Part shown: piece by piece, positions 1,067 to 44,128 of the stretch
Position numbering within the stretch: position 1 is the first letter of the stretch
Layout of the letters: every line of letters starts with the position of its first letter
Source of the DNA: Candidatus Falkowbacteria bacterium
GTDB lineage: Bacteria; Patescibacteriota; Patescibacteriia; JACRDY01
DNA: 53,893 bases
NCBI GenBank assembly: GCA_016218485.1
Contig: JACRDY010000062.1
Span: forward strand, 1-53,893
Reading direction: 5' to 3'
Program-made: the position numbers and the translations under genes
The notes under the pieces: model-generated
Told to the model about the DNA's origin: nothing
The model's database searches: none
What the model saw: only the letters and a program-made list of their open reading frames with translations

Positions 1067-2308
1067 CTATTCATACCGCAGCGCCTCAATCGGATTCAGG
1101 CCCGCCGCCCGGCGCGCCGGGTAGTAGCCAAACGTTACCCCGATCCCGATACAGACCACACAGGCGATTAAGATAGAGTCTAGGGACACGACAAAATCCC
1201 AGCTGTACCCAAGGTACTGGGCCACGCTGGCGATCAGAAACGCGATCAGCGCGCCAATGACAATCCCGATCACCCCGGCGGAAAATGTCAGCATAACTGC
1301 TTCGACCAAAAATTGGCTAAGGATATTTTCCCGCGTGGCGCCGACGGCTTTGCGTAGGCCGATCTCGCGCGTCCGCTCCGTCACCGCCGCGAGCATAATA
1401 TTCATGATCCCCACGCCGCCGACAAAGAGCGCGATGGCCGCGATCGCCGTCAGGAAATATTTGAGCGCGTCGGTAATGCTGGTCAGCGTCTTAATCGCGT
1501 CAGCAATTGAGCGAACCGAGAAATCATCATCAGCCGGCTCGTCAATGTCGTGCTGCTCACGTAGTATCGACCGGACGTCTTCCATGCTGCTCTCCACATT
1601 CTCGGGCGAGTCAACCTTGGCCCGGGCAAACCCCAGGTGGTCGATGCCCAGGAGTAGCTTCTGCGCCGAGGAAACAGGAATCACAATGACGTCGCTCGGG
1701 TCATCCAGACCGCTGACGTCTTTCTGTTTCATTGTCCCAATGACCGTAAAATTCTCTTTGTTAATTTTAATTTTCTCGCCAATCGGATCCGCCTCCACAA
1801 ACAGGTCCTCCACCACCCCCGGCCCCAGTATGGCCACGCGCGCCAAGCTCCGCTCTTCTTCTTCGGTCAAAAACCGGCCAGCCGCAAGATCGATCCCCTC
1901 AACGTCCAAATACTGGTAGCCCGAGCCGACAAACGTCCCGTCAATACTCCGATTCTGCCAGACGACGCTGCCGACCCCGCGTGAATACGGCGCGGCCGCC
2001 ACGATGTGCGGCGCTCGGGCTTTGTTCAAGAGCTCACGGTAATCATCATACTTCAGCGTGGTGACTAAAATTCCCATGGCTGAAGCGGGCGGGCCGGCAT
2101 CGTCAGCGGCGCCCGGCAGCACGCCAATGAGGTTGGCACCCTGGCCTTCGAGCTGATTAATGATCAGACTCTGCGCCCCCGCGCCCACCGACATAATCAC
2201 AATCACCGCGGTAATCCCAATAATCACGCCGAGCATTGTTAGTAAGGCGCGTTTCTTGTTTGATCGGAGCGACCGGTCCGCCGTACGGTAAATATCCAAT
2301 AGGTACAT
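1067..2308 (-). CDS. ABC transporter permease, MacB/FtsX family
   Basis: RALLTMLGVIIG N-terminus, GGVGIMNIML…ERTREIGLRKAVGA, C-terminal YPARRAAGLNPIEALRYE. Confidence 0.93.
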   Translation of the reverse strand: MYLLDIYRTADRSLRSNKKRALLTMLGVIIGITAVIVIMSVGAGAQSLIINQLEGQGANLIGVLPGAADDAGPPASAMGILVTTLKYDDYRELLNKARAPHIVAAAPYSRGVGSVVWQNRSIDGTFVGSGYQYLDVEGIDLAAGRFLTEEEERSLARVAILGPGVVEDLFVEADPIGEKIKINKENFTVIGTMKQKDVSGLDDPSDVIVIPVSSAQKLLLGIDHLGFARAKVDSPENVESSMEDVRSILREQHDIDEPADDDFSVRSIADAIKTLTSITDALKYFLTAIAAIALFVGGVGIMNIMLAAVTERTREIGLRKAVGATRENILSQFLVEAVMLTFSAGVIGIVIGALIAFLIASVAQYLGYSWDFVVSLDSILIACVVCIGIGVTFGYYPARRAAGLNPIEALRYE

Positions 2309-2309
2309 A

Positions 2310-2384
2310 AATTACGAATTACGAATTACGAATTACGAATGATACTTGACCAATTCGTAATTCGTAATTATTAATTCGTAATTA
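2310..2384. repeat. Mirror-microsatellite element, unit AATTACG/CGTAATT
   Basis: (AATTACG)x4, 11-nt spacer, inverted array; fills the gap between the ATPase stop and the permease start. Confidence 0.9.
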
Positions 2385-3110
2385 TTTCTTAAGCTCTCCC
2401 CCGTCTTTAGCGACAATCCGATTACTGACCCGTTCATCAGAGACTAACAAACCATCCTTCGTGCGGAGAATGCGCTGCGCGTGTTCAGCGGTATACTTCT
2501 CATGGGTCACGAGAATAATCGTCTTGCCCTGCTCATTCAAATCTTCGAGAATCTCCATCACCTGCGCGCCGGACTTAGAGTCTAGGTTGCCGGTCGGCTC
2601 GTCCGCGAAAATCACGTCAGGGTTATTGACGAGTGAGCGGGCAATCGCCACGCGCTGTTTCTCACCGCCGGACAATTTGTTCGAGAGGTAATCCAGCCGG
2701 TGACCCAGGCCGACCGCTGCCAGCGCTTTACTGGCAATGACGCGACGATCATTTTCCTTGACCGCGCGGTTATACACCAGCGGCAGCATCACATTGTCAA
2801 GCACGCTGGTTCGCGCCAGCAAGTTGAATGACTGGAAAATAAAGCCAATCTCCCGCAGCCGCGTCTGCGCCATTTCCGCCTCGGTCAATTGACTAACATC
2901 CCTGCCTTTAAATAAATACTGCCCGCTGGTTAACGTATCCAAAAAACCCAAGATATGCATCAAGGTTGATTTACCCGAACCGGACGGCCCCATAATCGCC
3001 ACGAATTCACCGGGCATGACATCAAAACTAACGCCGTGCAGGACCTTGGTCACGACCTCATCGTTGGCGAATTCTTTAGTCAGGTTTGTTATTTTGATGA
3101 TTGGATCCAT
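2382..3110 (-). CDS. ABC transporter ATP-binding protein, MacB/LolD-like
   Basis: Walker A GPSGSGKS, LSGGEKQRVAIARSL, FADEPTGNLD. Confidence 0.95.
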   Translation of the reverse strand: MDPIIKITNLTKEFANDEVVTKVLHGVSFDVMPGEFVAIMGPSGSGKSTLMHILGFLDTLTSGQYLFKGRDVSQLTEAEMAQTRLREIGFIFQSFNLLARTSVLDNVMLPLVYNRAVKENDRRVIASKALAAVGLGHRLDYLSNKLSGGEKQRVAIARSLVNNPDVIFADEPTGNLDSKSGAQVMEILEDLNEQGKTIILVTHEKYTAEHAQRILRTKDGLLVSDERVSNRIVAKDGGELKK

Positions 3111-3116
3111 ACAATT

Positions 3117-3307
3117 AGTTGAAAGTTATAAAGTTAAAAGCAGGAGTTACGCACTTTTAATAAAAATTGGCTAAAATTAGCTGTTAATAATTTTTATTGT
3201 TACTCTAAAATTAGCTGAAAATTTTAGAAGTGCGTAACTCCTGTTAAAAGTTAGAAAGTTCTACAACTTTTAACTTTATAACTTTATAACTTTCAACTTT
3301 CTAACTT
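3117..3307. repeat. Mirror-microsatellite element, unit AAAGTT(AT/G/A), interrupted by a MITE
   Basis: agttgaaagttataaagttaaaag … aactttataactttcaactttctaact. Confidence 0.88.
3141..3243. mobile_element. 103-bp MITE, copy 1
   Basis: 16-bp perfect TIR CAGGAGTTACGCACTT; flanking TTAAAAG direct repeat (3134-3140, 3244-3250); exact reverse-complement copy at 35698-35800. Confidence 0.9.
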
Positions 3308-4960
3308 CTATTTACTGCCGTTCTTCACAAATGTCACCACGTTCTCGCCCTCACTCAAACCAGAAACGACTTCCACGAGACCGTCATCGCCCTTCAAGCC
3401 AGTCTGCACCGCACGATCTGCCACCTGGTTAGCCTCGGCATCGGTCAACACCTGTACCTTCCCCTCCACCACCGCGCGCTGAGGAATAACCAACACGCCG
3501 GTACGGCTATCGGTCAGCACATCAACGTTGGCGGTCATGCCCGGCTTGATGTCGTATTCTGTTTCATCAATATTCACTTTGACTTTATAGTACACTACAC
3601 CGGAAATTTCCGTCTCGGCCGGTTCAATCAAAATAATATGACCGGTAAATAGCGCCTCGTCGCCAAAGGCATCCAACGTCACCTTGGCTTCATCGCCAAC
3701 GGAAATCTTGGCAATATCAGACTCAGGCACGTCCACCTCAATTTCAAACTGCTGGTCGCCCAGCATCACCACCACCGGCGTTGTTAAACTAGCGTACTCA
3801 CCAATGGAGTTGTTAACTTTGGTAACCACCCCGGCCACCGGCGCCGTGATGACCCGATCCGACATTTTCTGCTGAATAGCAGCGACCTGCGCTGCCGCCT
3901 GATCCACCAGCGCGCTGTAATAGGCCACATCGCTCTTCTTCGGATCAGCCGCCGTCACCGCGTACTGCGCTTTGGCTAAATCCCAGGCTTGCTGCTTGAT
4001 CTCAAGCGTATCTTCAGCGCTCGCCACCGCATTATCATAGTAGAGTCGCTTGGTCTGCAGATTGGACGCGTCAGTCTGTAAAGTATTAATGCCAGTACTG
4101 ATAGTCGTCTGTTCGGTCCGAATGGTCGTCTTGAGCGTATCCAGACTGGCTTCGGGGAATGAGGCGGAGGTGATGGACGCCAACAGCGCGTTGTACATTG
4201 AATCAAGCGCCAGCGCCACCTGATTGAGTGACAACTTGACATTATTGAGCGCTGCCAAGATTTGTTGCTGATCGCCGCTCGCCTTGGCATTGACGAGCAC
4301 CTGATCACTGGCCGAGAGTATCGTCAGCGCATCCTCACGCTGTACTTTGGTGTTAATTAAATATTGAGGGTTCTTAATGCTGATGTAATCTTTGCCGGCC
4401 GGATCGTTATATACCGTCTGGATAACATCCAGCGATGCCCTGGCTTTAAAAAGATAATTACGGATATCATTAAGCGCGGTATCACGGTAAATCGTCATAT
4501 TCTCATCACGATCTTTCTGTGTATTATGCAGACTGGTCAGCGCGGCGTTATAGGCCGCTGCCGCATTCTCGACTTGAGATTCGGCCACCTGCAGTTCCGG
4601 CTCCGTAGCGCCATCCAGTACTTTCTGAAGGTTAGCCTGCGCTGATGCCAGAGTAGCCTGGTACTGCCGCAACTGCACCGCCAGATCACCGGCATCCAAA
4701 CGAGCCAGCACCTGCCGGGCCGTCACTGGCTGGCCGACGACTGCTGTCATACCAGTAATCCGCCCGCTGGCCGCGAAATTAAGTTCAATTTCTTCAGCGC
4801 TCTTGATCTGCCCGGTGGCGGAAACCGTCTGGGTCAGATCCTGACGGACGACTGGCGTGGTAGTATATTCCACACTCTGCTTATCACCTCCGCGAAAATA
4901 GAGCGCGGCGCCGATCACCACGACCACTGCTCCAATAATAATGATTCTTTTTTTCGTCAT
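3308..4960 (-). CDS. Efflux periplasmic adaptor / membrane-fusion protein (HlyD/MacA-like)
   Basis: N-terminal TM, VSATGQI…ASGRI, long coiled coil, ITAPVAGVV, KPGMTANV; in an operon with the ABC ATPase and permease. Confidence 0.9.
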   Translation of the reverse strand: MTKKRIIIIGAVVVVIGAALYFRGGDKQSVEYTTTPVVRQDLTQTVSATGQIKSAEEIELNFAASGRITGMTAVVGQPVTARQVLARLDAGDLAVQLRQYQATLASAQANLQKVLDGATEPELQVAESQVENAAAAYNAALTSLHNTQKDRDENMTIYRDTALNDIRNYLFKARASLDVIQTVYNDPAGKDYISIKNPQYLINTKVQREDALTILSASDQVLVNAKASGDQQQILAALNNVKLSLNQVALALDSMYNALLASITSASFPEASLDTLKTTIRTEQTTISTGINTLQTDASNLQTKRLYYDNAVASAEDTLEIKQQAWDLAKAQYAVTAADPKKSDVAYYSALVDQAAAQVAAIQQKMSDRVITAPVAGVVTKVNNSIGEYASLTTPVVVMLGDQQFEIEVDVPESDIAKISVGDEAKVTLDAFGDEALFTGHIILIEPAETEISGVVYYKVKVNIDETEYDIKPGMTANVDVLTDSRTGVLVIPQRAVVEGKVQVLTDAEANQVADRAVQTGLKGDDGLVEVVSGLSEGENVVTFVKNGSK

Positions 4961-5083
4961 ATGATGGATTACCCTATGATATAAAATTACCCATAGATTT
5001 TCTAAATTCCGTATATACTATACTCGGTAATTGATAAATAATCAAGTTAAAATACAGGCAAGCATAGAAATTATTAAACATTA

Positions 5084-5312
5084 AAAATCCCAAATCCCAA
5101 TACCCCAGGCAATGACAAATTCCTAATGACAAATGACCAGTCAATGCTTAATGTCTAATGTCAAATATCCAAACTTTTGGCATTAGAGCTTTGATATTTG
5201 GCATTGATTTGTCATTTGGATTTTAAACTTTGGCATTATGAGATATTGGGATTTGGGATTTTAGTCATTCGTAATTAGCCCTAAAGGGGCTCTTTCGGGG
5301 TAATTCGTAATT
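5084..5312. repeat. Nested mirror-microsatellite elements (outer AAATCCC, inner AATGAC/TGGCATT, adjacent TTCGTAA remnants)
   Basis: Perfect 19-bp IR AAAATCCCAAATCCCAATA (5084-5102 / 5244-5262) enclosing a second heptamer hairpin. Confidence 0.82.
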
Positions 5313-5313
5313 C

Positions 5314-5342
5314 TTGCATTATTTCAAACTCTATGCTATAGT
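5314..5342 (+). promoter_or_regulatory. Sigma70-like promoter of rpmE
   Basis: TTGCAT-17 nt-TATAGT with an extended TG. Confidence 0.55.
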
Positions 5343-5369
5343 ACGGGCATTCTGTATTAAATATTGTTT

Positions 5370-5678
5370 ATGAAAAAGGATATTCACCCGGAATACTACA
5401 AAGAGGCCAAGGTCACCTGCGCCTGCGGCAATAGCTTCACGGTCGGCTCCACCGTCAAGGAAATTGAGACGGAGCTGTGTTTTATGTGTCATCCGTTCTA
5501 CACCGGCACCCAAAAACTGGTTGACACCGCGCGTCGCGTCGATAAATTCAAACAAAAATTGGAAAAAGCCAGCGCCGCCGCGTTCGCCAGTCGGGGCAAA
5601 AAAGTCAAGCGCGCTAAACGAGCCGCGACTAAACAGGCTAAAGCTAAAGCCAAGAAAACCGTCTCTGCTGAAGAGTAA
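5370..5678 (+). CDS. rpmE: 50S ribosomal protein L31 (Zn-type) with Lys/Ala-rich tail
   Basis: MKKDIHPEY…CACGN…CHPFYTG…RVDKF; ATG at 5370 preferred over TTG at 5364. Confidence 0.95.
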
Positions 5679-5926
5679 CTTTTGAAGCCCGCTTCGTCTA
5701 TTGCCAAATCTTTTGGTATAATGGCAAAGCGGGTTTTTGAATTTTACGGGCTGCTCAAGTCCGCCGCGGCGGGCGCAGAGCAGACCAAGGTAAAATTCAT
5801 CCGCCATGTCCCGTCTGGCGGGACGAAGACGGATCAATCACTCTGACTACCAACACTATCCAGCGATAAGAAACATCCTGGCAAGGGCGGGGTAATGGTT
5901 GAGATGGTTACCAAACATCTAACACT

Positions 5927-6964
5927 ATGAATATCCAAGAAGTACAGCAAGAGTACGCCGATCTGGAACAGCAACTCCAGGATGTTTCAGTTACCGCCAA
6001 TCCCCAAAAGTTAAAAACTCTGTCACAGCGCTACAATGAACTGAAAGAAACCATGACCGCGGTCAGCGAGCTGGAAATGGTTGAGCGGCAAATCAGCGAT
6101 AACCAGTTAACCCTGCAGGATAACGACCCTGAACTGCGCGAACTGGCCGAAGTGGAAGCGCTGGAACTGCAGACGCGCCGTGAGCAGCTACAGCGCACGG
6201 TCAACGATCTGCTCAATCCGGCCGATCCGCTGGACAAAAAAAATGTCATCATGGAAATCCGCGCCGGCACCGGCGGAGACGAGTCCGCGCTGTTTGCCGC
6301 TGAACTGTTTCGCCTGTACTCCCGCTACGCCGAAAACCAAGGCTGGAAAACTAAAATCATTGATGCCAATCGCACCGGCATTGGCGGCTTTAAAGAAGTT
6401 ATTTTCTCCGTTACCGGTGGCAAAGTCTATGGTGATTTGAAATACGAGAGCGGGACGCATCGCGTCCAGCGCGTACCGGAAACTGAAAAGAGCGGCCGTA
6501 TTCATACTTCGGCCGTCACGGTGGCAGTATTGCCGGAAGCAGAGGAAGTGGATATAGAAATCAAACCAGAAGATCTACGTATTGATGTCTTTCGCGCCGG
6601 TGGCAAAGGCGGCCAGGGTGTCAACACCACCGACTCGGCGGTCCGCATCACCCACCTGCCGACCGGTCTGGTCGTCGCCTGCCAGGATGAGCGCAGCCAG
6701 CTGCAAAACAAGACCAAAGCCCTGCAGGTGCTGCGCTCGCGGCTGCTAGCGGCCGTGGAAGAAAAAAACCGCGCCCAGCGAGCCGCCAACCGCAAAAGTC
6801 AAATTGGCAGCGGCGACCGCAGTGAAAAAATCCGCACCTACAATTTCCCCCAAGATCGGGTGACGGATCACCGCGTCAAAGAAAACTGGTTCGGTATTGA
6901 CAGTATCATCAACGGCAATATTGAGCCGATCATCGCCGCGCTTAAACAAGCAGACAAAGGATAA
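5927..6964 (+). CDS. prfA: Peptide chain release factor 1
   Basis: GGQ motif, HRVQRVPET, followed by prmC. Confidence 0.97.
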
Positions 6965-7036
6965 TTACGAATTACGAATTAAAAATTACGAATTGTTTGA
7001 TATTTATTCGTAATTCGTAATTTGTAATTCGTAATT
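6963..7036. repeat. Mirror-microsatellite element, unit AATTACG
   Basis: Array overlaps the prfA stop; inverted array ends 3 nt before the prmC ATG. Confidence 0.9.
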
Positions 7037-7039
7037 TTT

Positions 7040-7915
7040 ATGCTCTCTCTCCGTCAAACGCTCACATTAGCTGTCCAACAATTACAGCCATCAAAGACGA
7101 AAATCGCCACACTTGACGCGGAGATTTTATTATCTCATATACTTAAAAAACCAAAAGAATACCTCTACACTCATCCGGAAAAAATACTGACCAGACGACA
7201 ACACGCTGCTTTTCAAAAACTGATTGCGCGACGAACCAAAGGTGAACCAATCGCCTACCTTGTCGGGCATAAAGAATTTTTTGGTCTGGACTTTACCATC
7301 AACAAAAACGCCCTCATCCCCCGCCCCGAAACTGAACTCTTGGTTGAAGAAACTTTAAACCAACTACCAACTACCAGCTCTCAGCTCTCAGCCATCGCGG
7401 ACATCGGCACCGGTTCCGGCTGTATTGCCGTTGCGATCGCCAAACACGCACCAAAAACTAAAATCTACGGCACGGACGTATCAGCTAAAACGCTGGCACT
7501 AGCCAAAACCAATGCCCATAGACACCAGGTGAGTCATCGTATTACCTTTCTGCCAGGCTCGCTCTTGGCACCACTCAAAAATATCAAACTGGATGCGCTC
7601 GTCGCCAACCTGCCCTATGGCTGGTCAAATTGGAAAAATAACACCTCGGCCGAAACCATTGGCCTACGTTTTGAGCCGCCAAGGGCACTGTTTACCGGCG
7701 AACGAGGACTGAAACTCTACCGCCAATTCTTAAAGCAAATGGCCAAACGCCAACAGCAGCCGCGGCTGATGCTCTTAGAATTTGACCCGCGACAAACCAA
7801 GGCCTTCACTAAATTGATTAAACAAATCCTCCCCCACTATTCTCTGGAAATAAAAAAAGACCTCTTGGGCCATAATCGGCTGATAATCCTAAATTTACAA
7901 CAAAAATGTGGATAA
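7040..7915 (+). CDS. prmC: Release factor glutamine methyltransferase
   Basis: GEPIAYLVGHKEFFG, LIPRPETE, DIGTGSGCI, NLPY. Confidence 0.95.
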   Translation: MLSLRQTLTLAVQQLQPSKTKIATLDAEILLSHILKKPKEYLYTHPEKILTRRQHAAFQKLIARRTKGEPIAYLVGHKEFFGLDFTINKNALIPRPETELLVEETLNQLPTTSSQLSAIADIGTGSGCIAVAIAKHAPKTKIYGTDVSAKTLALAKTNAHRHQVSHRITFLPGSLLAPLKNIKLDALVANLPYGWSNWKNNTSAETIGLRFEPPRALFTGERGLKLYRQFLKQMAKRQQQPRLMLLEFDPRQTKAFTKLIKQILPHYSLEIKKDLLGHNRLIILNLQQKCG

Positions 7916-7926
7916 TTGTTTAAACA

Positions 7927-7955
7927 TTGCAATTCTTTAATACTTATACTATAAT
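7927..7955 (+). promoter_or_regulatory. Near-consensus sigma70 promoter with no downstream ORF
   Basis: TTGCAA-17 nt-TATAAT. Confidence 0.65.
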
Positions 7956-7961
7956 GACATT

Positions 7962-8024
7962 GGCACTTGTGAGGGCTTTGGCCCTCTCGCGGTCAATACA
8001 TAAACCGCAGACAGGTGCTTTTTT
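7962..8024 (+). ncRNA. Candidate small structured RNA (three-way junction ending in a U-run)
   Basis: Closing stem GCACTTGT/ACAGGTGC, hairpins GAGGGC/GCCCTC and GCGGT/ACCGC, then TTTTTT; starts about 7 nt after the -10. Confidence 0.5.
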
Positions 8025-8514
8025 ATTTAAATAGACTCCAAATCTCCGGAATAAAAAACTCTACGTTTTTTACCGGAACTATCAGACTCAATCTTCCAAG
8101 AAGGATAAACACTCCAAAAGAACGGTTGACTACCATAACTTCTTTTACGACTACCTTGAGTCGTACGCCTTGATTTGGCATAACGGCAATAAAAACATAA
8201 TACCGTACTAATTTCATTCTCTTCTCCCAGCGAGAATTAATTTTCTGCCTGACCAACATATTTCGTTCGCAATATTCTTGGAGAGTAGCAGATTTCTTAA
8301 TAATTCTTACAGCCAAAGGTAACAGACGTAACCTTATATACTGTTCATCCTGAGAACGAGTTGTATTCCATGATTTAAAAATTAAATGTTGTAATCCCTC
8401 TGTATTAAAATGGACATCCTTACTTAAATAAGGACAAAAAACTTTACCTACCTCGCTATAGAATCGAGTGGCATCATTCTTAGCGGAATTAAATTTTTCT
8501 TCGTCAGTACTCAT
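8023..8514 (-). CDS. AT-rich hypothetical protein, possibly a BECR/RelE-fold nuclease; probable frameshift near 8135
   Basis: VFCPYL…VHFNTEGLQHL…RLRLL; the alternative frame continues GSQPFFWSVYPSWK…YSGDLESI*. Fold assignment from memory only. Confidence 0.5.
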   Translation of the reverse strand: MSTDEEKFNSAKNDATRFYSEVGKVFCPYLSKDVHFNTEGLQHLIFKSWNTTRSQDEQYIRLRLLPLAVRIIKKSATLQEYCERNMLVRQKINSRWEKRMKLVRYYVFIAVMPNQGVRLKVVVKEVMVVNRSFGVFILLGRLSLIVPVKNVEFFIPEIWSLFK

Positions 8515-8546
8515 GGGTTTAGTATAGAACACTACGGCATTTATTT

Positions 8547-9638: not shown

Positions 9639-9649
9639 AATGAAAAAAC

Positions 9650-9712
9650 AAGATTTAAGATTAAAGATTAAAGAAAGCCGTCTTAAATCTTTAATCTTAA
9701 ATCTTAAATCTT
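9650..9712. repeat. Mirror-microsatellite element, unit AAGATT(T/A)
   Basis: aagatttaagattaaagattaaaga … tcttaaatctttaatcttaaatcttaaatctt. Confidence 0.88.
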
Positions 9713-9736
9713 ATTTCTTCATACTTATTACTAACC

Positions 9737-12000: not shown

Positions 12001-12123
12001 TAATGAAGAAGTAAGATTAGGATTAAAGATTTAGGATTTAAGAATTAAGATTTAAGTGAAAACAGAGAAAAGGAAGCATTCTTAAATCTTACTTCTTAAA
12101 TCTTTAATCTTACTTCTTCATTA
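12001..12123. repeat. Mirror-microsatellite element, unit AAGATT(T/A)/AGGATTT
   Basis: Perfect 19-bp outer IR TAATGAAGAAGTAAGATTA (12001-12019 / 12105-12123). Confidence 0.88.
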
Positions 12124-13043: not shown

Positions 13044-13049
13044 AAAACG

Positions 13050-24963: not shown

Positions 24964-25041
24964 AGTTAGAAAGTTAAAAGTTATAAAGTTGAAAGTACGA
25001 GACTTAGAACTTTCAACTTTATAACTTTCAACTTTCAACTT
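24964..25041. repeat. Mirror-microsatellite element, unit AAAGTT(AT/G/A), between ftsE and ftsX
   Basis: Shares AAAGTTATAAAGTTGAAAGTACG with the element at 42976. Confidence 0.9.
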
Positions 25042-35091: not shown

Positions 35092-35158
35092 TGCAGCCAA
35101 ATAAACACTATGGATAATTTTAATAAAAAAACACCTGCTCAAGAGAGAAAGTGTTTTT

Positions 35159-35231
35159 TGGTGGGTCCGGAGAGAATCGGACTCGTCAACGCGGCCGATA
35201 ATCGGCCCGCTCTCCATTATGAGCTACGGAC
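35159..35231 (-). pseudogene. tRNA-Lys duplicate with the anticodon arm replaced by GGCCGATWATCGGCC
   Basis: 59-nt exact duplication (35126-35184 = 35236-35294, period 110) covering the tRNA 3' end and terminator. Confidence 0.85.
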
Positions 35232-35268
35232 AAACAAAAAACACCTGCTCAAGAGAGAAAGTGTTTTT

Positions 35269-35343
35269 TGGTGGGTCCGGAGAGAATCGGACTCTCGACG
35301 CCGAGCTTAAAAGGCTCGCGCTCTACCACTGAGCTACGGACCC
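35269..35343 (-). tRNA. tRNA-Lys(TTT), CCA encoded
   Basis: GGGTCCG…CGAGC CT TTT AA GCTCG…CGGACCC-A-CCA; atypical T-loop TCCGATT. Confidence 0.9.
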
Positions 35344-35625: not shown

Positions 35626-35674
35626 TCTCGACGCGGCCGATTATCGGCCCGCTCTACCACTGAGCTACGGACCC
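35626..35674 (-). pseudogene. 5' two-thirds of tRNA-Lys with the anticodon arm replaced
   Basis: GGGTCCGTAGCTCAGTGGTAGAGCG-GGCCGATAATCGGCC-GCGTCGAGA, 12 nt before the GIY-YIG ATG. Confidence 0.85.
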
Positions 35675-35678
35675 AAAT

Positions 35679-35819
35679 AATAATTACGAATTACTAACAG
35701 GAGTTACGCACTTCTAAAATTTTCAGCTAATTTTAGAGTAACAATAAAAATTATTAACAGCTAATTTTAGCCAATTTTTATTAAAAGTGCGTAACTCCTG
35801 TTAGTAATTCGTAATTATT
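35679..35819. repeat. Mirror element (AATTACG class) with a MITE at its exact centre
   Basis: Perfect 19-bp IR AATAATTACGAATTACTAA directly flanking the MITE. Confidence 0.88.
35698..35800. mobile_element. 103-bp MITE, copy 2 (inverted)
   Basis: Exact reverse complement of 3141-3243. Confidence 0.9.
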
Positions 35820-35838: not shown

Positions 35839-36906
35839 CTACCCCTTGTTTGTCAATTCTCTAATGATTGCAAGCAATGCCTGTGTCGCGCCCGGTTTGA
35901 GTAATGATTTAATATTTCGGGATAGCTGATCGCGATCTGACGGATTATCCAAGAGCGCCTTAAGCTGCGCCACGAATCCGGCGCTGTCTAATCCTGATTG
36001 TGGTAAATACACCGCCGCGTGACTGTGAGCAAAGTACACAGCATTAGCTTCCTGATGGCTCTGCGGCAGTGGAATCACCACCGTCGGCTTACCCAATGCC
36101 GCCAGTTCACTCAAAAAACCAAATCCCGCGCGCGACACCACCACATCAGCCACCGCCAGAGCATCTGGCATTTCTGCCTGCAAAAATTCATAGGGATGGT
36201 ACCGCTCTACGGGCGCACTGACCACGCTCTTTCCCGCTCCGGTCACGTGGATGATTTGGCAGAATGCCGTCAAGTCAGACAAGCTGTCAGCCACTAACTG
36301 ATTGAGTACTGTTGCCCCGGTGCCTCCACCGATAACCAGAACTGTTGGCAGAGACGAGTCTAAACCGAAACGGTGGAGCGCGGAAGCTCTGCTCCCGGTC
36401 AGAATGCTCTGCCGCACGGGGTTGCCGATCCAGACAGTTTTAATGCGATTGAAATACGGCAGCGATTCGGCCAGCGCCACGGTAATACGCTGGGCAAACG
36501 GCGCCGAGAGTTTATTCGCCAATCCCGGAAGACAATCTTGCTGATGGACGACGACCGGAATCCGCAAGAGCCACGCCGAGAAGACCACCGGTACAGCGAT
36601 GAAACTGCCGGCGCTGACCACCACCTCCGGCTGCAGCCGATGGAGCAGCGCCAGACTCTGGATACAACCGTAGATAATTCTGAACGGATCCAAAAAATTT
36701 TGCAGCGAAAAATACCGGCGCACTTTGCCACCGCTGATCGGCTGAAAAGTAATACCGGCGTCAGTCACGACTTGGCGCTCGGGACCATTGGCGGTGCCTA
36801 TCCAAAAAAGCTCATCAACCGAACTGGCTGATTGCAGCGCTTCACTGACCGCCAGGAGCGGTGTGACTGAACCCATTGTTCCTCCACCGGCAAAGAGTAT
36901 TTTCAT
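35839..36906 (-). CDS. murG: MurG glycosyltransferase
   Basis: GGGTMGSVTP, GNPVR, GGGTGA, SRAG, HQEANA. Confidence 0.94.
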   Translation of the reverse strand: MKILFAGGGTMGSVTPLLAVSEALQSASSVDELFWIGTANGPERQVVTDAGITFQPISGGKVRRYFSLQNFLDPFRIIYGCIQSLALLHRLQPEVVVSAGSFIAVPVVFSAWLLRIPVVVHQQDCLPGLANKLSAPFAQRITVALAESLPYFNRIKTVWIGNPVRQSILTGSRASALHRFGLDSSLPTVLVIGGGTGATVLNQLVADSLSDLTAFCQIIHVTGAGKSVVSAPVERYHPYEFLQAEMPDALAVADVVVSRAGFGFLSELAALGKPTVVIPLPQSHQEANAVYFAHSHAAVYLPQSGLDSAGFVAQLKALLDNPSDRDQLSRNIKSLLKPGATQALLAIIRELTNKG

Positions 36907-36911
36907 ATTTT

Positions 36912-37000
36912 AGATTGTAGATTTCAGATTGCAGATTTCAGATTTGTTATAGTAGTAACGTTACATGCCGACTCAATCTGCAATCTGAAATCTGCAATCT
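36912..37000. repeat. Mirror-microsatellite element, unit AGATT(G/T)C, between ftsW and murG
   Basis: Perfect 19-bp IR 36926-36944 / 36982-37000. Confidence 0.9.
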
Positions 37001-37001: not shown

Positions 37002-38108
37002 TTATATTTTACTGAACCGGCTGATATTCAGCAAAATACCCACGGCCGCTAAACTAGTCATCAGCGCCGTGCCGCCCGCGCTGATAAAGGGCAACGGGAT
37101 ACCGGTCATCGGCAGGAGCGAGAGCATCCCCATGATATTGATAAATGACTGAAAAATCAACCAGGTGATAATCCCGATCACCAACAGCCGGGAAAACCGA
37201 TCTGGCGTATTTTTGGCGAGCACAAATCCCCGATGAGCGAAAAACAGCAGGAGCCCAATGAACGCCGTGGTAAACAGGAACCCTAACTCCTCACCGATAA
37301 TAGCAAAGATACTGTCGCCCGTCACCTCCGGCAAATAGGAAAATTTCTGACGGCTATGCCCCAAACCGACACCGAAAAATCCGCCGGAGCCGACGGCAAT
37401 CAAGGACTGCCAGATATGGTAAGCAATCCCCTGCGGATCACGTTCAGGGTGCAGGAAGGCGGTAAAGCGATCCATCCGGTAGGGCGCGATTTTTACCAGC
37501 GCCAAAAACCCCGCCAGGCCGACCGCGCCAATAATCCCCAAATGTTTAAGGCTGCCGCCGCCAACAAAATACATAATCACCGCGGTAATCACGATAATAG
37601 ACAGTGTCCCTAAGTCAGGCTGTAAGAGCATCAAGACTGAAATAATCCCGAGTACTATCGCAAAAGGCAAAAAACTGTTATGCAAATCCTGCACCCGCTT
37701 CTCGCCGCGACCATCCAGCCAGGCCGCCAGGTAAATCAGAAACGTCAGTTTAACGATTTCCGCCGGCTGCACGGAAAAACCAAGAATCGTTATCCAGCTC
37801 TTGGCGCTGCCATACTCGGCGCCCAGTCCGGGAATAAAAACAAGCGTCAACAGCGCTATGGAAAAAATTAACAATGGCCAAGCCAGCTGCTTCAGCTTAG
37901 TATAGTGAAAACGGGAAAAAAAGAAAAACAGCGCTACACCAGGCAGTAAGCCGGTAACAATCTGGTGAATGACAAAGTAGTATGGTTGATTAAATTTCTG
38001 ATAGGCAATCGGCGTGCTGGCTGAAGATAAAACAATAAAACCGAAGAGGAGGAGCACCACCACTATGCCCAGAAGCAGGTAATCCGGCTGATGTCCGCGG
38101 TGCTGCAT
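37002..38108 (-). CDS. ftsW: Cell division SEDS protein FtsW
   Basis: QPAEIVK, QPDLGT, GLGHSRQKFSYLPE; located between murD and murG. Confidence 0.92.
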   Translation of the reverse strand: MQHRGHQPDYLLLGIVVVLLLFGFIVLSSASTPIAYQKFNQPYYFVIHQIVTGLLPGVALFFFFSRFHYTKLKQLAWPLLIFSIALLTLVFIPGLGAEYGSAKSWITILGFSVQPAEIVKLTFLIYLAAWLDGRGEKRVQDLHNSFLPFAIVLGIISVLMLLQPDLGTLSIIVITAVIMYFVGGGSLKHLGIIGAVGLAGFLALVKIAPYRMDRFTAFLHPERDPQGIAYHIWQSLIAVGSGGFFGVGLGHSRQKFSYLPEVTGDSIFAIIGEELGFLFTTAFIGLLLFFAHRGFVLAKNTPDRFSRLLVIGIITWLIFQSFINIMGMLSLLPMTGIPLPFISAGGTALMTSLAAVGILLNISRFSKI

Positions 38109-39503: not shown

Positions 39504-40571
39504 TTAGAATGTTCTATCTAAAAGAAAAACGATCAAACCGACCAACGCGGTCACGCTGGAGATCAGCCAAAAACGCATCGTCACCTTGTACGCCGGCCAG
39601 CCCTTGGCCTCATAATGGTGATGAATCGGCGCGATCAGAAAAACCTTGCGGCCGAACAGCCGCTTAGAGACCAGCTGAATAACGTTGGAGGCGATTTCCA
39701 CCAACAAGATAAAGGCAATCAAAGGGAAAATAAAAACGGTATCGGTCAAAAACACCAAAACCGCCAAGGTGGCAGTCAAGCCCAGAATGCCAGTTTCGCT
39801 CATATAGTACCGCGCCGGCGGAATATTGTACCAGAGAAATGCCAAGGTCGCGCCGGCCACCACTGCGCAAAATGTCGCCAAATCATACTGACCGCGGGCA
39901 AAAGCAATGGCTCCGTAGGCGGCAAAAATCGTGGCAAAAACACCGCCGGATAACCCGTCTATTCCATCAATGACGCTGCCGGAAAAAGTAACCAGCATCA
40001 CCACGATAAAGAGCGGGATATACCAGAGACCAATCACCCAATCCCCGACAAACGGCACGTGCACCGCGTCCCAACCTAACTTGTAGTAAAACCATGAAGC
40101 GCCCAGGAGACCGATCAAGGCTACCAAGAGCGCCCGGTGGCGAAAACGAATACCGGCGCCTTTGTGCTGCTCACCCACGCCCCGGATAACGAGAATATCA
40201 TCCACCAAACCCAAGAGTGCCGCCGCTGCCAAGGTAAACAAGGGAATCCACGTCTGTGAACGATTGACAAAATTAAATCCCGCCAAAAAACTGTCCGGGA
40301 ATATTGCGGCGAGCACCCAGAGTATGAACGCGATCAGGAGTACCGTGCCCCAGATGAGCAAACCGCCGAGCCGCGGCGTCTTGACTTCACGATCTTTGTG
40401 GAGCGCATGAAACAGTGGCGTGGCGCTGCCGTCAGGAGCGACCGTACGAGCGGTCTTTTTCCAACACCGGTAGGTATACAGAAAATGCGTCAGGAGCGGT
40501 GAGATTAAAAAGGCGACAAAAAATGCCACTGCCGCCAATACTCCCAACCGAATAACATAAAAATCAATCAT
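39504..40571 (-). CDS. mraY: Phospho-MurNAc-pentapeptide transferase
   Basis: KTPRLGG, GLVDD, DGIDGL, APIHHHYE. Confidence 0.92.
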   Translation of the reverse strand: MIDFYVIRLGVLAAVAFFVAFLISPLLTHFLYTYRCWKKTARTVAPDGSATPLFHALHKDREVKTPRLGGLLIWGTVLLIAFILWVLAAIFPDSFLAGFNFVNRSQTWIPLFTLAAAALLGLVDDILVIRGVGEQHKGAGIRFRHRALLVALIGLLGASWFYYKLGWDAVHVPFVGDWVIGLWYIPLFIVVMLVTFSGSVIDGIDGLSGGVFATIFAAYGAIAFARGQYDLATFCAVVAGATLAFLWYNIPPARYYMSETGILGLTATLAVLVFLTDTVFIFPLIAFILLVEIASNVIQLVSKRLFGRKVFLIAPIHHHYEAKGWPAYKVTMRFWLISSVTALVGLIVFLLDRTF

Positions 40572-40583: not shown

Positions 40584-40676
40584 ATAGTTACACTGTTACA
40601 TTGCTACATTGCTACATTGTTATTTATAGCAACGAACAGTGCGGCAATTTGGCAATGTAGCAATGTAACCATCTCA
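40584..40676. repeat. Mirror-microsatellite element, 8-mer ACATTGCT (empty-site paralogue of 25722-26013)
   Basis: ctacattgttatttatagcaacgaacagtgcggcaatttggcaatgtagcaatgtaaccatctc. Confidence 0.88.
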
Positions 40677-41069
40677 TTATAAATTAATCCAAACCAGCAA
40701 GCTGCCGCCTAAGAGCAAGAGCGCGGTCATCAGTGCGGTCACCCCGCCCAAGAGGTACGCGGCCAGACGCTGCTCTTGATAAAAAACCAAGGCCAGAACG
40801 ACATTGACCAGCCAGAGAAACGTCCCGACCGCCGGCGTCAGGTACAGCGAATACCAAGAACCGATCAGGTCAATGCCGAAATACACCGAGTAGTGCAAAA
40901 CCAGCGGATCAGCTGACGGTTTGACCAGCAAGTAGAGTACCAGATAGAGCACACAATTCAATACCAGCGCGAACAAAAATAACAGCAACAAAAGACGATC
41001 TTGCAAAAAAATTAAATTCAGCCGAGCCTTAATACCGTGGCTCCACAGGCTTAACCGGGTCAGTGGCAT
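40677..41069 (-). CDS. Membrane protein (3 TM) upstream of mraY
   Basis: LVLHYSVYFGIDLIGSW motif between TM segments. Confidence 0.75.
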   Translation of the reverse strand: MPLTRLSLWSHGIKARLNLIFLQDRLLLLLFLFALVLNCVLYLVLYLLVKPSADPLVLHYSVYFGIDLIGSWYSLYLTPAVGTFLWLVNVVLALVFYQEQRLAAYLLGGVTALMTALLLLGGSLLVWINL

Positions 41070-41161: not shown

Positions 41162-42913
41162 ATGCTCAACCAAACATTGGTACAAGAAGTTGTCCTCGAT
41201 AATAAGATTGTTGAGCGCGCCGCGCTGCCGGAGATGATCCGGAAGGCCGAAGCGGCACAGACGCCGCTGGAGCAGTATTTGATTGACCAGCATCTCACTA
41301 CGGAAGCGGACCTGCACCAGGCAATAGCCAAAAAACTCAACCTGCCATTCATTGACCTTGAGCAGAATGTTATTGATCCGGCGGCGGTCCAGCTCATCCC
41401 GGAAAACGTGGCGCAGAAACACCATTTGGTTGGCTTTGCCAAAGACGACGCCGTGCTCAAAATCGCCACCACCAACCCCGAAGATCTGCAAACTTTGGAA
41501 TTCATTCGCCGGACTACCGGCTTAGAAATCGCGCTCCACTATACCACTCCGTCATCGCTCCACAACGCACTGACCGTTTACCACCAGGACATCCGAGCTG
41601 AATTTCAAGATCTGGCCAAGACGGTCAGCCACATAGACCTGTCCGCCAGCGGCCAACCAGAAAGCAGTGAACAGAACCAACTCAAAAAATTGGCCAGCGA
41701 ATTGCCGATTATAAAAATCGTTGACACGCTCCTGCAGTACGCGATTATTGAAGGAGCGTCAGACATCCATATTGAACCCACGGAACAGGAAGTCATTGTC
41801 CGCTACCGCATTGATGGCATACTGCAAGATGCGATGAATCTGCCGCTGGATACTCGCGACGGGATCATCGCCAGAATCAAGGTGCTGTCAAACCTAAAAA
41901 TTGATGAGAAACGGTTGCCGCAAGATGGTCGTTTTAAAATCCTGGAGAAAGGAGAAAAAATTTCTTTCCGCGTCTCAGCGCTCCCCGTCTATGATGGGGA
42001 AAAAGTGGTCCTGCGCCTGCTCCATGAGGGCAGCCAAGCCATCGGTCTGGAAAAACTCGGCTGGCAGCCCGAAGCGCTGGAAGTGGTCCAACGCAATATC
42101 AAAAAACCCCACGGCCTGATCCTCGTCACCGGCCCGACCGGCAGCGGCAAAACCACGACGCTCTACACCATCGTGCAGCAGCTTAATACGGCCAAAGTCA
42201 ATATCTGCACGATTGAAGATCCGATTGAGTACCGCATGCCGCGCATTAACCAGAGCCAGGTTAATCCAAAAATTGGTTTCAGTTTCGCCGCCGGTCTGCG
42301 GGCGCTGCTGCGCCAGGATCCCGACATTATCATGGTCGGCGAAATCCGTGATGAAGAAACCGCAGAAATCGCTATCAATGCCGCCATGACCGGTCACCTG
42401 GTACTCTCGACGCTGCACACCAATGACGCGGCCACCACCCTGCCGCGCCTGGCCGACATGCAGGTGCCCGCCTTCCTCATCGCCTCCACCACCAATATCG
42501 TCATCGCCCAGCGGCTGGTCAGAAAAATCTGCAGTAAGTGCATCACCACCTACACCTTGGACGCTCAGGCAATCGCCGAGCTCAAAAAACAATTTGCCAT
42601 TGAAGAAATGTTCGCCGATCTCCAACGCTCCGGACGGATCACAGCGGATCAGACAATAGAAAAAATGAACTTTTCCAAAGGCCAAGGCTGCGCGCACTGC
42701 CACAATTCCGGCTACAAAGGCCGGATCGGTATCTACGAAGTACTGGAAATCACCCCTGCCATCTCCGCGCTTATTTTGCAAAATGCCGGCAAAGACGCCA
42801 TCAACGCGGTAGCGCGAGAGCACGGCATGGTCACCATCCTGGAAGACGGCTTCATGAAAGTGCAGCAGGGCATCACCACCATTGAAGAGGTGCTGCGGGT
42901 GACTAAAGAATAA
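41162..42913 (+). CDS. pilB: Type IV pilus assembly ATPase PilB/GspE
   Basis: ASDIHIEP, RLPQDG, GPTGSGKT, LRQDPD, TGHLVLSTLHTN, two CxxC. Confidence 0.93.
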   Translation: MLNQTLVQEVVLDNKIVERAALPEMIRKAEAAQTPLEQYLIDQHLTTEADLHQAIAKKLNLPFIDLEQNVIDPAAVQLIPENVAQKHHLVGFAKDDAVLKIATTNPEDLQTLEFIRRTTGLEIALHYTTPSSLHNALTVYHQDIRAEFQDLAKTVSHIDLSASGQPESSEQNQLKKLASELPIIKIVDTLLQYAIIEGASDIHIEPTEQEVIVRYRIDGILQDAMNLPLDTRDGIIARIKVLSNLKIDEKRLPQDGRFKILEKGEKISFRVSALPVYDGEKVVLRLLHEGSQAIGLEKLGWQPEALEVVQRNIKKPHGLILVTGPTGSGKTTTLYTIVQQLNTAKVNICTIEDPIEYRMPRINQSQVNPKIGFSFAAGLRALLRQDPDIIMVGEIRDEETAEIAINAAMTGHLVLSTLHTNDAATTLPRLADMQVPAFLIASTTNIVIAQRLVRKICSKCITTYTLDAQAIAELKKQFAIEEMFADLQRSGRITADQTIEKMNFSKGQGCAHCHNSGYKGRIGIYEVLEITPAISALILQNAGKDAINAVAREHGMVTILEDGFMKVQQGITTIEEVLRVTKE

Positions 42914-42975
42914 GCTACCACCAATGATATATGCCTGCCCTGGCTTGGTAAAATCAAACGATGGAGGAGGAAACA

Positions 42976-43043
42976 GTTGAAAGTTATAAAGTTGAAAGTA
43001 CGGAATTTTTAACTTTATAACTTTCAACTTTATAACTTTCAAC
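42976..43043. repeat. Mirror-microsatellite element, unit AAAGTT(AT/G), between pilB and pilC
   Basis: Perfect 24-bp IR 42976-42999 / 43020-43043; ends 2 nt before the ATG. Confidence 0.92.
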
Positions 43044-43045
43044 AT

Positions 43046-44128
43046 ATGGCCAACCCTCTCAAACGGCTCAACCAATGGTTCAGCATGATCCAAGGCGTCC
43101 CGCTGTCACAAAAAATATTTTTCGTTCAAAATCTCCAGGTGATGATTAAAGCCGGCCTGCCGCTGGCCCAAGCGCTCAACGCGCTGACGGCGCAGAGCAC
43201 GAATGCCAAACTGAAACGGATCACGCTCGACGCCTACCAGCAGATAGAAGCCGGCCAGACACTGTCAACGGTCTTGGCCAAGTACCCGCGGGTCTTCCCG
43301 AAAGTCTTCATTGCTATGATTAGAGCGGCGGAAGTCTCGGGTAATCTAGAAAATATCCTCGGGCAGCTCGTCATCCAGATGAAGAAAGACTACGAGCTGA
43401 TCAGTAAAGTTAAAGGCGCCATGACCTACCCGGTGGTCGTGCTCATCGCCATGATCGGTATCGGCATCGGGATGATGATCTTTGTTATCCCTAAAATCAC
43501 CAGCATTTTCACGGAAATGGCAGCGCAGCTGCCGCTGCCGACGCGTCTGCTGATTGGCCTTAGTAATTTCGTCAACTATCACGGTATCATCACCGGCGCA
43601 ATCGTCATCATACTGACTGCGGCCGTGGTCATCTTCATCCGTCACCCGCGCGGCCAATACCTCTTCCACCGCCTGCTGCTGCACAGCCCGGTCATTGGAC
43701 CGATTATCAAAAAAATTAACCTGGCGCGATTCGCCCGCACGTTGAACTCGCTAATCAAAACCGATATCCCGATCGTCCAGTCATTCCAGATCACCGCCCA
43801 TGTGGTCGGCAATCTCATCTACCGCGAAATCATCACCGCCACCGGCCGCGAGCTCAAAACCGGCTCCACTATCAATGCTCCGCTCAGTCAACACGCCGAC
43901 CTCTTCCCGCCGGTGGTGACACAGATGATCCAGGTTGGAGAACAATCGGGTAACCTGGAAGAGCTGTTTGATGAGCTGGCGACGTTTTATGAAAATGACG
44001 TACACGAAACCATGAATAACCTCTCCTCAATCATTGAGCCGGTGCTAATCGTCATCCTCGGTATCGCGGTCGCGGCTATGGCTATCGCCATCATCATGCC
44101 TATGTATTCACTCACTTCGCAAATTTAA
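43046..44128 (+). CDS. pilC: Type IV pilus platform protein PilC/GspF
   Basis: AGLPL…AAEVSGNL…AMTYP…VGEQSGNL…IEP. Confidence 0.92.
   Translation: MANPLKRLNQWFSMIQGVPLSQKIFFVQNLQVMIKAGLPLAQALNALTAQSTNAKLKRITLDAYQQIEAGQTLSTVLAKYPRVFPKVFIAMIRAAEVSGNLENILGQLVIQMKKDYELISKVKGAMTYPVVVLIAMIGIGIGMMIFVIPKITSIFTEMAAQLPLPTRLLIGLSNFVNYHGIITGAIVIILTAAVVIFIRHPRGQYLFHRLLLHSPVIGPIIKKINLARFARTLNSLIKTDIPIVQSFQITAHVVGNLIYREIITATGRELKTGSTINAPLSQHADLFPPVVTQMIQVGEQSGNLEELFDELATFYENDVHETMNNLSSIIEPVLIVILGIAVAAMAIAIIMPMYSLTSQI

Follow-up and report, generated by a model that had tools for sequence, protein, structure and literature searches.

Heptamer-armed mirror elements at operon junctions of a candidate phyla radiation bacterium and their likeness to 23S rRNA intervening sequences

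Repeats of seven-nucleotide units have given rise to three literatures, on the short tandemly repeated repetitive (STRR) hairpins of cyanobacteria, on TAACTGA-type repeats, and on the intervening sequences (IVS) of 23S rRNA; if our reading is right, the elements discussed here link them. For the STRR hairpin of hupS-hupL in filamentous cyanobacteria, the part of PMC2670836 that deals with it proposes a role in transcript stability or translational coupling. The relevant sections of PMC4679880, on TAACTGA repeats of marine Beggiatoaceae, and of PMC4692102, on G-rich heptamers of Xanthomonas and Nostoc, describe intergenic arrays in operons without Shine-Dalgarno (SD) sequences. The IVS of Coxiella, as described in the portion of PMC4990558 devoted to it, has a 28-bp stem, a 5' arm with a variable number of tandem GACAGAT units, and an S23p open reading frame (ORF) in its loop, and it is cut mid-stem by RNase III in vitro. 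Here, we consider palindromes made of heptamer arrays (mirror elements) at gene junctions of a 53,893-nucleotide contig of Candidatus Falkowbacteria bacterium (JACRDY010000062.1; "the window" refers to this whole stretch). The host is a tiny groundwater bacterium of the candidate phyla radiation (CPR). On balance, we favor the view that the mirror elements, which lack ORFs, belong to a dispersed class of insertion elements with IVS architecture, selfish and tolerated, and that translational coupling is not what they have been selected for.

Mirror elements and their placement

The window is contig C54 of a 981-kb genome (G000; 69 contigs, 51% G+C, 91.6% complete) in which a simple, home-made codon-bias ORF caller yields 895 genes and 81% coding sequence. 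Gene identities in the window were taken from Pfam, which confirmed the ABC ATPase, MacB-type permease, HlyD-type adaptor, prfA, prmC, ftsE, ftsX, ftsW, murG, murD, mraY, pilB, and pilC genes; homologue alignments of ftsX, murG, and prmC begin at residues 1-5. A preliminary description of the window had placed mirror elements flush against stop and start codons at seven junctions of core operons. Spacer reading and repeat tools bear this out, each of the seven junctions holding a palindrome of 70-190 nt. Here and in at least 12 further spacers of the window, the elements have the form (unit)n-loop-(reverse-complement unit)n, with units of 7-8 nt that vary by locus (AATTACG, AAGTTGA/AAGTTATA, AAGATTT, CAGATTG, ACATTGCT, CACAGAT, and others). 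None of the window's own mirror elements carries an ORF.

Between the genes for the ABC ATPase (2382-3110, minus strand) and the MacB-type permease (1067-2308, minus strand), the element at 2310..2383 consists of (AATTACG)4.4, a 12-nt loop, and (CGTAATT)n; it overlaps the TAA by 2 nt, ends 1 nt short of the ATG, and has a minimum free energy (MFE) of -32.8 kcal/mol. The junction between the HlyD-type adaptor gene (3308-4960, minus strand) and the ABC ATPase gene holds a composite element of the AAGTTGA/AAGTTAT family (3117..3307), with outer arms at about 3117-3140 and 3262-3307 and an outer stem that begins 9 nt past the TAG and stops 6 nt before the ATG (MFE, -67.5). AATTACG units are also found at 6963..7036, between prfA (5927-6964) and prmC (7040-7915), where the element shares 2 nt with the TAA and stops 3 nt short of the ATG (MFE, -30.1). 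In the 81-nt spacer between ftsE (25040-25738, minus strand) and ftsX (24047-24958, minus strand), the stem of an AAGTTGA/AAGTTAT-family element (24964..25041; arms 24969-24996 and 25009-25036) runs 1 nt into the stop codon on one side and stops 5 nt short of the ATG on the other (MFE, -38.4). The 95-nt spacer between ftsW (37002-38108, minus strand) and murG (35839-36906, minus strand) is taken up by CAGATTG/CAGATTT units (36907..37000; arms 36912-36937 and 36975-37000; MFE, -37.3), which leave 1 nt unpaired on one side and 5 nt on the other, and the 105-nt spacer between a 130-aa ORF and mraY (39504-40571, minus strand) holds 8-nt ACATTGCT-type units (40584..40680; arms 40595-40619 and 40645-40669; MFE, -41.5), with 0 nt and 8 nt unpaired. 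In the 132-nt spacer between pilB (41162-42913) and pilC (43046-44128), an AAGTTGA/AAGTTAT-family element (42975..43043) starts 62 nt past the stop and ends 2 nt before the pilC ATG, with GGAGGAGGAAACA directly 5' of it. Sense RNA was folded from stop codon to start codon, and the z-scores of the seven folds against shuffles run from -5.9 to -10.4. It had been suggested that folding would bring each stop close to the next start again, and the predicted folds agree at six of the seven junctions: in the order given, the unpaired stop-to-start distances are 1, 15, 3, 5, 6, 8, and 64 nt, versus 73-197 nt along the chain.

What do these junctions look like where the elements are absent? Six genera of the same family are syntenic with the window, and 29 relatives were compared for prfA/prmC. 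In element-free relatives, the spacers measure 2 and 9 nt (ATPase/permease), 3 and 9 nt (adaptor/ATPase), 8, 3, and 3 nt (ftsE/ftsX), -4, -4, and 4 nt (ftsW/murG), and 8 nt (before mraY), in keeping with the earlier statement that the named pairs are normally tight: they are 2-9 nt apart or overlap. In the modeled folds, the distance of 1-15 nt across the stem base at six of the seven junctions equals the spacer in these element-free relatives. The gene prmC directly follows prfA in 24 of the 29 relatives; in 14 of the 24, the two genes overlap or are no more than 14 nt apart. For pilB/pilC, which has no close pilC orthologue in the family, the comparison is with more distant relatives only. 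The elements look flush because each is a discrete addition, ~50-190 nt in length, to a spacer that would otherwise measure 0-10 nt.

Placement was examined across the genome. G000 has 404 hairpins. Intergenic sequence, which makes up 19% of the genome, contains 327 of them; of the rest, 44 overlap the end of a gene and 33 lie within genes. Among them, 197 of the nongenic hairpins have arms of period 7 or 8. Mirror elements are present in 128/637 co-directional, 13/99 convergent, and 20/90 divergent spacers. At the 114 co-directional junctions with one mirror element, the spacer that is left once the element is subtracted has a median of 37 nt, compared with 31.5 nt for element-free spacers (n=418; Mann-Whitney p=0.16) and with the 231 nt that length-proportional placement would predict (p=5e-35); leftovers of 15 nt or less account for 35%, versus 2% expected. 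From the shortest to the longest bin of native spacers, occupancy is 14/85, 4/54, 22/87, 11/58, 11/79, 28/104, 16/82, and 22/88, i.e., 7-27% per bin, as density drops from 25 to 0.6 per kb. A second genus of the same family (G001; 1.08 Mb), used for replication, gives a leftover of 37 nt, free spacers of 42 nt, a length-weighted expectation of 288 nt, occupancy of 13-33%, and a drop in density from 45 to 0.5 per kb. The drop is about 40-fold in G000, and also in G001, between spacers of 15 nt or less and those above 250 nt. Placement is thus per junction and not per nucleotide, with ~20% occupancy regardless of native spacer length, and the check for position bias that the preliminary description had called for finds placement nonrandom relative to gene ends. 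Such flat occupancy could mean either that long spacers are almost wholly functional or that installation is aimed at gene boundaries. Relative to uniform placement within their own spacers, elements within 3 nt of the stop are in excess (39 versus 30.3 expected, P=0.0035), with a peak of 13 elements at an overlap of exactly 2 nt with the stop codon, and those within 3 nt before the start are depleted (19 versus 30.3).

The elements are independent, discrete, lineage-specific additions, not conserved structures. At the prfA/prmC junction, mirror-type elements with five different units fill the spacer in G000, G001, G003, G004, and G019 (the last from another family), and in G018 a mirror-type element lies just before prmC. 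Density in seven genera of one family is 2.97, 2.67, ~1, 0.17, ~0.4, 0, and 0 per 10 kb. Among 171 conserved co-directional junctions of G000 and G001, both are occupied at 22, versus 15.2 expected (odds ratio [OR] 2.4, p=0.017); where any hairpin is present in both, 3/39 pairs share at least three 7-mers, against 1.7 under shuffled pairing (P=0.23). Inheritance of orthologous elements between G000 and G001 was considered and rejected: 7/10 occupied junctions of the window are filled in G001 too, but the genome-wide association is weak (OR 2.4) and the occupants are unrelated. At the 16 junctions filled in G000 and empty in G001, the leftover has a median of 49.5 nt and the empty spacer one of 48.5 nt (rho 0.69), a match that fits well with the earlier idea that insertion at gene junctions is nearly neutral.

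The units form a shared vocabulary. At least 10 unit families occur together in the 1 Mb of G000, the mean arm GC of its mirror elements being 25%, and G000, G001, and G004 have the unit vocabulary in common, not the loci. On either strand, the purine-rich arm lies 5' in 171/192 elements of G000, and within unit families by 106 to 1; in G001, 191 elements are purine-rich first, versus 41. At least 120 stretches match (AATTACG)3, with Cyanobacteria (many records of Nostoc, Anabaena, and Calothrix), Bacteroidota, Ignavibacteria, Acidobacteria, Chloroflexota, Planctomycetota, and others among the matches listed, and for an exact 26-mer of the AAGTTGA/AAGTTAT family there are 56 matching stretches, which come from Bacteroidota, several CPR groups, KSB1, Nitrospirota, and Gammaproteobacteria. 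Most such cross-phylum matches are direct arrays; the mirrored ones keep the arm order (15 versus 3 and 10 versus 0). Periods 7 and 8 predominate among the tandem repeats of G000 (458/1313 and 218/1313 rows of TRF output). Of the merged arrays, 388/518 are intergenic, and 284 of these 388 are parts of palindromes; unpartnered direct arrays, too, sit in tight junctions (9/50), though these are short (24-45 nt; median, 33 nt). A rule by which half-arrays are anchored at gene ends and point inward was tried and dropped, as solo arrays follow no such rule (Fisher p=1).

Further mirror elements of the window include two of the AAGATTT family, one between a DUF3048 gene and the bL25 gene (9640..9722, ending 1 nt before the ATG), where element-free relatives have spacers of 8 and 22 nt, and one between a rodA/ftsW-family gene and a 297-aa ORF (12012..12112), where the corresponding spacers are 3, 3, -1, and -17 nt. 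Elements may also be nested in the loops of other elements. The loop of the composite element at 3117..3307 holds a 103-nt insert (3141..3243; hand-counted coordinates) with 16-nt terminal inverted repeats (CAGGAGTTACGCACTT...), which resembles a MITE (a miniature transposable element bounded by inverted repeats). Its second copy (35698-35800) sits inside an AATTACG-armed hairpin (35679..35819) near tRNA-like repeats, upstream of murG, so that the two host hairpins differ in unit family. It seems that other small elements land in the loops of hairpins. In contigs from three DNA runs of one study, aligned to window positions 1-20000, breaks fall at or near elements (pieces end at 2336, 3271, 5208, 7010, 9710, 12035, and 18412), the joints are cross-matches between elements that share one unit family, and no empty-site allele was seen. 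A search of sequencing runs for this DNA listed no RNA run that contains it.

The window has other repeats as well. Another family, with GAGATGGTTAC(A)AAAC-type ends and a G+C-richer interior of 130 nt lies at 25743-25928, between ftsE and its upstream gene; it recurs at 40677-40690, and a related copy fills the G001 junction orthologous to 9639-9736. A short palindrome, GTTAACC(G/A)GGGTTTTAAAACCC(C/T)GGTTAAC, recurs at 13294-13375, 19165-19195, and 23494-23523, one copy being in the loop of an AAATTGG-type mirror element (23449-23553). At 35126-35341 there is a 110-nt tandem duplication (2 copies, 85% matches) with tRNA-like sequence, related pieces of which lie at 35628-35675.

Kinship with 23S rRNA intervening sequences

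The case for an IVS-type element begins with the stem: mirror elements have a median of 23-25 matched bp at 93% identity, in the range of IVS-type stems (~20-30 bp), and folds of -30 to -41 kcal/mol. It continues with the loop. IVS-type elements may have a PF05635 ORF there, and G000 has eight PF05635 genes. By eye, six of these are flanked by mirrored arms whose unit families are those of the ORF-less elements; some of the resulting ORF-bearing elements span a junction from stop to start, e.g., C27:32888-33346. When flanks were scored blind (flank-pairing score of at least 12; controls, other genes of 80-200 aa), mirrored arms were found for 5/6 PF05635 genes in the caller's set versus 6/301 controls in G000 (Fisher 1e-7) and for 10/13 versus 10/332 in G001 (8e-12). 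One of the G001 genes has (AATTACG)n arms, AATTACG being also the repeat of which the ABC and prfA/prmC elements of the window are built. PF05635 copy number is 8 in G000, 14 in G001, 9 in G004, 8 in G003, 2 in G005, 1 in G006, and 0 in G002, and it follows element density with a rho of 0.78 (n=7, the genomes being kin). A search of the open-access literature gave no paper that links PF05635 genes to heptamer repeats outside rRNA genes. The PF05635 four-helix-bundle protein is, we take it, of the same family as Avd, the accessory protein of diversity-generating retroelements.

The third likeness is the site itself. The only 23S rRNA match in G000 (C24:13234-17781) spans 4548 nt against a model of 2925 positions. 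A 108-nt AAGTTGA/AAGTTAT mirror element lies there in a helix loop, at model positions ~1896-1898, and a CACAGAT-type palindrome is contained in a second insertion, of ~90 nt, near position 225. The CACAGAT-type palindrome at 52750..52822 of the window has a unit near both this second palindrome and the GACAGAT repeats of the Coxiella IVS. As an observation on the same gene, several insertions together add ~1.6 kb to the match, and two of them are the heptamer-type palindromes. These palindromes lie inside the only 23S rRNA gene found and must therefore be transcribed through there.

Other loci of G000 combine genes with inverted repeats. At C49:20692-22439, rplK and rplA are each set apart by AAGTTGA/AAGTTAT mirror elements, and a PF05635 gene lies in an adjoining element of the same family. 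A gene for a 102-aa protein, presumably of the GxxExxY PD-(D/E)XK family by its look, sits between inverted repeats with CACAGA-type arms (C9:5897-6205), and one for a 79-aa protein with what we take to be the look of a GIY-YIG nuclease sits between inverted repeats that form a G+C-rich palindrome (C29:1923-2162). Two Y1_Tnp (HUH, RAYT-like) paralogues of ~244 aa lie at C20:7786-8517 and C27:45167-45901, the latter adjoining a different palindrome, related to the window repeats at 19724-19769 and 49504-49549. A RAYT-type transposase was rejected as mobilizer, since the flanks of these two genes are without heptamer arrays, and reverse transcriptase was rejected as a correlate of density, with six matches in G002, where the 10 kb sampled has no elements, and none in G004.

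Competing explanations

We posit the following for the favored reading, in which the elements are selfish and tolerated. They would be transcribed as part of the operon mRNA without ending it, and a stem of 25-35 bp would form in the RNA. Host RNase III could then cut this stem at its middle, as in IVS, splitting the message between cistrons; alternatively, the A-U-rich duplex may simply fold out, leaving stop and start at their old distance. Either fate would be cheap, with neighboring cistrons still working, and because insertion would cost little, operon junctions would be among the few sites of survival in a 1-Mb genome. The proximity of stop and start would be a by-product of the palindrome. 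The junction elements are probably read through, because none of the seven is terminator-like, there is no space for a promoter, the genes that follow are essential and intact, and the 23S gene contains elements of this kind. More precisely, none of the seven junction elements was called by terminator consensus (arm GC, 0.25, without the features of intrinsic terminators); the gap from element to ATG is only 1-10 nt, which leaves no room for a promoter there; and a promoter scan of the elements returned only weak 9-of-12 matches inside, e.g., 36941-36914 (minus strand). An RNase III domain gene is present (C38:15429-15818), and by analogy with IVS, cleavage by this enzyme is a plausible fate of the junction stems.

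Several points weigh against this reading. Flat occupancy is a poor fit to random insertion followed by selection unless long spacers are almost wholly functional, and active targeting of boundaries could be at work. The flanks of the elements, which are A-rich, yielded neither a target-site duplication nor a motif. Members of a unit family are not copies of one sequence either, for they differ in their loops and in the order and number of units, so that a cut-and-paste or copy mechanism would be conjectural. The forms with an ORF might just as well be PF05635 cassettes inserted into the loops of preexisting hairpins, and G003, with eight PF05635 genes, has few mirror elements in the 60 kb sampled. 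As rRNA operons have antitermination machinery, read-through of the 23S gene does not prove read-through of mRNA. On the side of method, single start codons may be off with so crude an ORF caller, stop codons being unambiguous, and the hairpin finder has home-made thresholds (ungapped inverted repeats, at least 16 matched bp).

Could the elements be part of something larger? A broader version of the selfish reading, which we consider possible but not likely, is that heptamer-armed hairpins form one cross-phylum selfish family that escapes at the RNA level, through host RNase III or by folding out, and could settle in any transcribed site where an interrupted RNA is harmless, namely rRNA helix loops and the gaps of a few bases between cistrons, with PF05635 as a mobility or maintenance factor, perhaps together with a reverse transcriptase. 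Boundary-targeted installation would then explain the flat occupancy, the arm polarity, and the shared words.

Are the elements instead an adaptive device for coupling? Here, the stem would bring a stop codon or an SD sequence near the start, and a terminating ribosome would melt the stem base and reinitiate, offsetting the scarcity of SD sequences; the part of PMC2670836 on hupS-hupL already has this idea in print. The layout of some junctions invites it. Besides the distances of 1-15 nt across the stem base at six of seven junctions, the pilB/pilC fold places GGAGGAGG 7 nt from the ATG, which lies directly 3' of the stem base, so that GGAGGAGGAAACA-hairpin-AT-ATG has an SD spacing of 7 nt across the base; at C1:8517, AAGGAG lies directly 5' of the stem, 6 nt from the start across its base. 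SD cores are indeed few, as had been proposed: 11.7% of 889 genes have one, versus 8.3% in a control window. That elements are depleted in the last 3 nt before starts (19 versus 30) suggests that they matter for initiation, and an effect at the RNA level fits this depletion, the two SD-stem-ATG layouts, and the SD scarcity. Selection at the RNA level, however, left no sign in either the mismatch types of 132 elements or stem quality by location. In the sense orientation, stem mismatches comprise 47 G·U, 68 A·C, and 115 others, i.e., no wobble bias, and stem identity is 0.934 in tight junctions (n=40) and 0.932 in loose, convergent, or divergent ones (p=0.80), with length likewise equal. Occupancy is similar in divergent (20/90) and convergent (13/99) spacers, where coupling is meaningless; sister genera without elements make do with spacers of 2-9 nt; occupants are not conserved between genera; and direct arrays that cannot fold are found in tight junctions as well (9/50). 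An SD core stands 5' of the element in 8/43 cases, which is suggestive only and not clearly above the genome rate of 11.7%. The claim that the elements preserve coupling as a selected role therefore lacks support, in view of the absence of a G·U excess, the equal stems everywhere, the unconserved occupants, and the unfoldable arrays in tight junctions, and we judge such a role unlikely.

The start context of this genome is an observation in its own right. The base before the start codon is T in 65% and that at position -2 is C in 34% of 889 starts (in the window, e.g., at 2309, 7039, and 43045); this T/C context is strong despite few SD sequences and survives beside the elements.

Two further readings concern how arrays are used and how they arise. 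In one, which strikes us as quite improbable, the arrays are binding sites for an RNA- or DNA-binding protein in a posttranscriptional network, the palindrome being secondary; binders could be S1-, Csp-, or CsrA-like, as proposed for TAACTGA repeats, or PF05635. Identical words across phyla (the 120 or more stretches of (AATTACG)3 and the 56 of the AAGTTGA-family 26-mer), a vocabulary common to three genera that do not share loci, and direct arrays flush with start codons, both here and in the part of PMC4679880 on Beggiatoaceae, speak for it; the presence of at least 10 unit families in a single 1-Mb genome and the lack of conservation of element-bearing genes between genera speak against it. 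In the other, which we strongly doubt, nothing moves: slippage at AT-rich motifs makes arrays in place, and hairpin-templated copying renders the arms symmetric. Loops and unit order that differ in every copy, the absence of a target-site signature at the flanks, and the dominance of periods 7 and 8 in TRF rows would all follow, and polymerase slippage is discussed for heptamers in the corresponding passages of PMC4679880 and PMC4692102. Yet the same words, an exact 26-mer among them, turn up at numerous loci and in phyla far apart; the order of the arms is fixed (106 to 1); PF05635 genes are flanked by the same families; and leftovers equal empty orthologous spacers, so local sequence has not been consumed.

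That the elements are terminators or attenuators, with downstream genes served by promoters inside or behind them, is very improbable. In its favor, 3' arms are T-rich, some with T runs (6963-7036 ends in ...AATTTTTATG), Rho was not found in the 91.6%-complete genome, so that hairpin-dependent termination would matter, and the few weak promoter-like matches exist, but the consensus and spacing results given above, convergent spacers that are not richer (13/99) than co-directional ones (128/637), the same kind of element inside the 23S rRNA gene, and intact downstream prmC, ftsX, murG, and mraY all argue otherwise.

Significance and comparison with known systems

If the favored reading of tolerated selfish hairpins is true, about one-fifth of gene junctions in some CPR genomes carry one, and they are tolerated in essential operons for cell division, the cell wall, and translation release factors. 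This is relevant to translation initiation where SD sequences are few, to gene and operon prediction, and also to assembly, because contigs break at these repeats. What heptamer repeats do has long been an open question, which the reading makes accessible to a concrete test.

Which known classes do the mirror elements resemble? Their assignment to MITEs was rejected, as loops and unit order vary and neither a flank motif nor a duplication was found. The Correia elements of Neisseria are marked by defined inverted repeats and duplicate a TA target. In the part of PMC2649163 on this point, they are small palindromic insertions that are cotranscribed with their neighbors and that RNase III binds or cuts, as may hold for the elements here. 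All Correia elements derive from a single conserved sequence, however, whereas the elements here show no conserved core and no target duplication. Repetitive extragenic palindromes (REPs) and REPINs, in the relevant portions of PMC3116915 and PMC3733652, are likewise short extragenic palindromes, often just past stops, with lineage-specific multiplication. Unlike the mirror elements, REPs are 20-40 nt, G+C rich, and conserved in sequence, and the RAYT-like genes of G000 are without flanking heptamer arrays. The REP/REPIN-RAYT class was rejected accordingly, the flanks of both Y1_Tnp-like genes holding no such arrays. In genes 25 and 38 of phage T4, a split SD sequence is known, in which a stable hairpin between SD and AUG restores the spacing. 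The predicted pilB/pilC layout would resemble it; the T4 cases are single evolved sites, and here the hairpin is a dispersed repeat.

Closer kin are found among the heptamers. Head-to-tail units of 7-8 nt, a mostly intergenic location, and words shared with cyanobacteria place the elements in the heptanucleotide-repeat (STRR/LSSR) class. Like the STRR hairpin described in the hupS-hupL part of PMC2670836, they have 7-bp tandem units, can form hairpins, and lie between cotranscribed genes. The difference is one of setting: in a 1-Mb CPR genome, there are ~200 palindromes of many unit families, filling ~20% of junctions (hupS-hupL is compared by its description). The TAACTGA and G-rich heptamers, as far as the cited passages of PMC4679880 and PMC4692102 describe them, are similar in often standing 1 nt before a start or overlapping a stop and in being shared across distant phyla; they differ in being direct and not predicted to fold, with one inverted set in 170, as against the 284/388 palindromic intergenic arrays here. 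With the Coxiella IVS of PMC4990558, within the part that describes it, G000 elements share a terminal-repeat stem (~28 bp in the IVS), a tandem heptamer arm, a PF05635 ORF in the loop, and a selfish, sporadic character. Unlike the IVS, the elements of the window are ORF-less and lie between protein genes, and RNase III cutting is shown for the IVS only. Heptamer hairpins in operons together with the coupling idea, arrays flush with start and stop codons, and heptamers in IVS arms are thus already in print; what is new is their scale in a CPR genome, the junction-by-junction statistics replicated in two genera, the nonconservation of occupants, and IVS-type elements at mRNA junctions.

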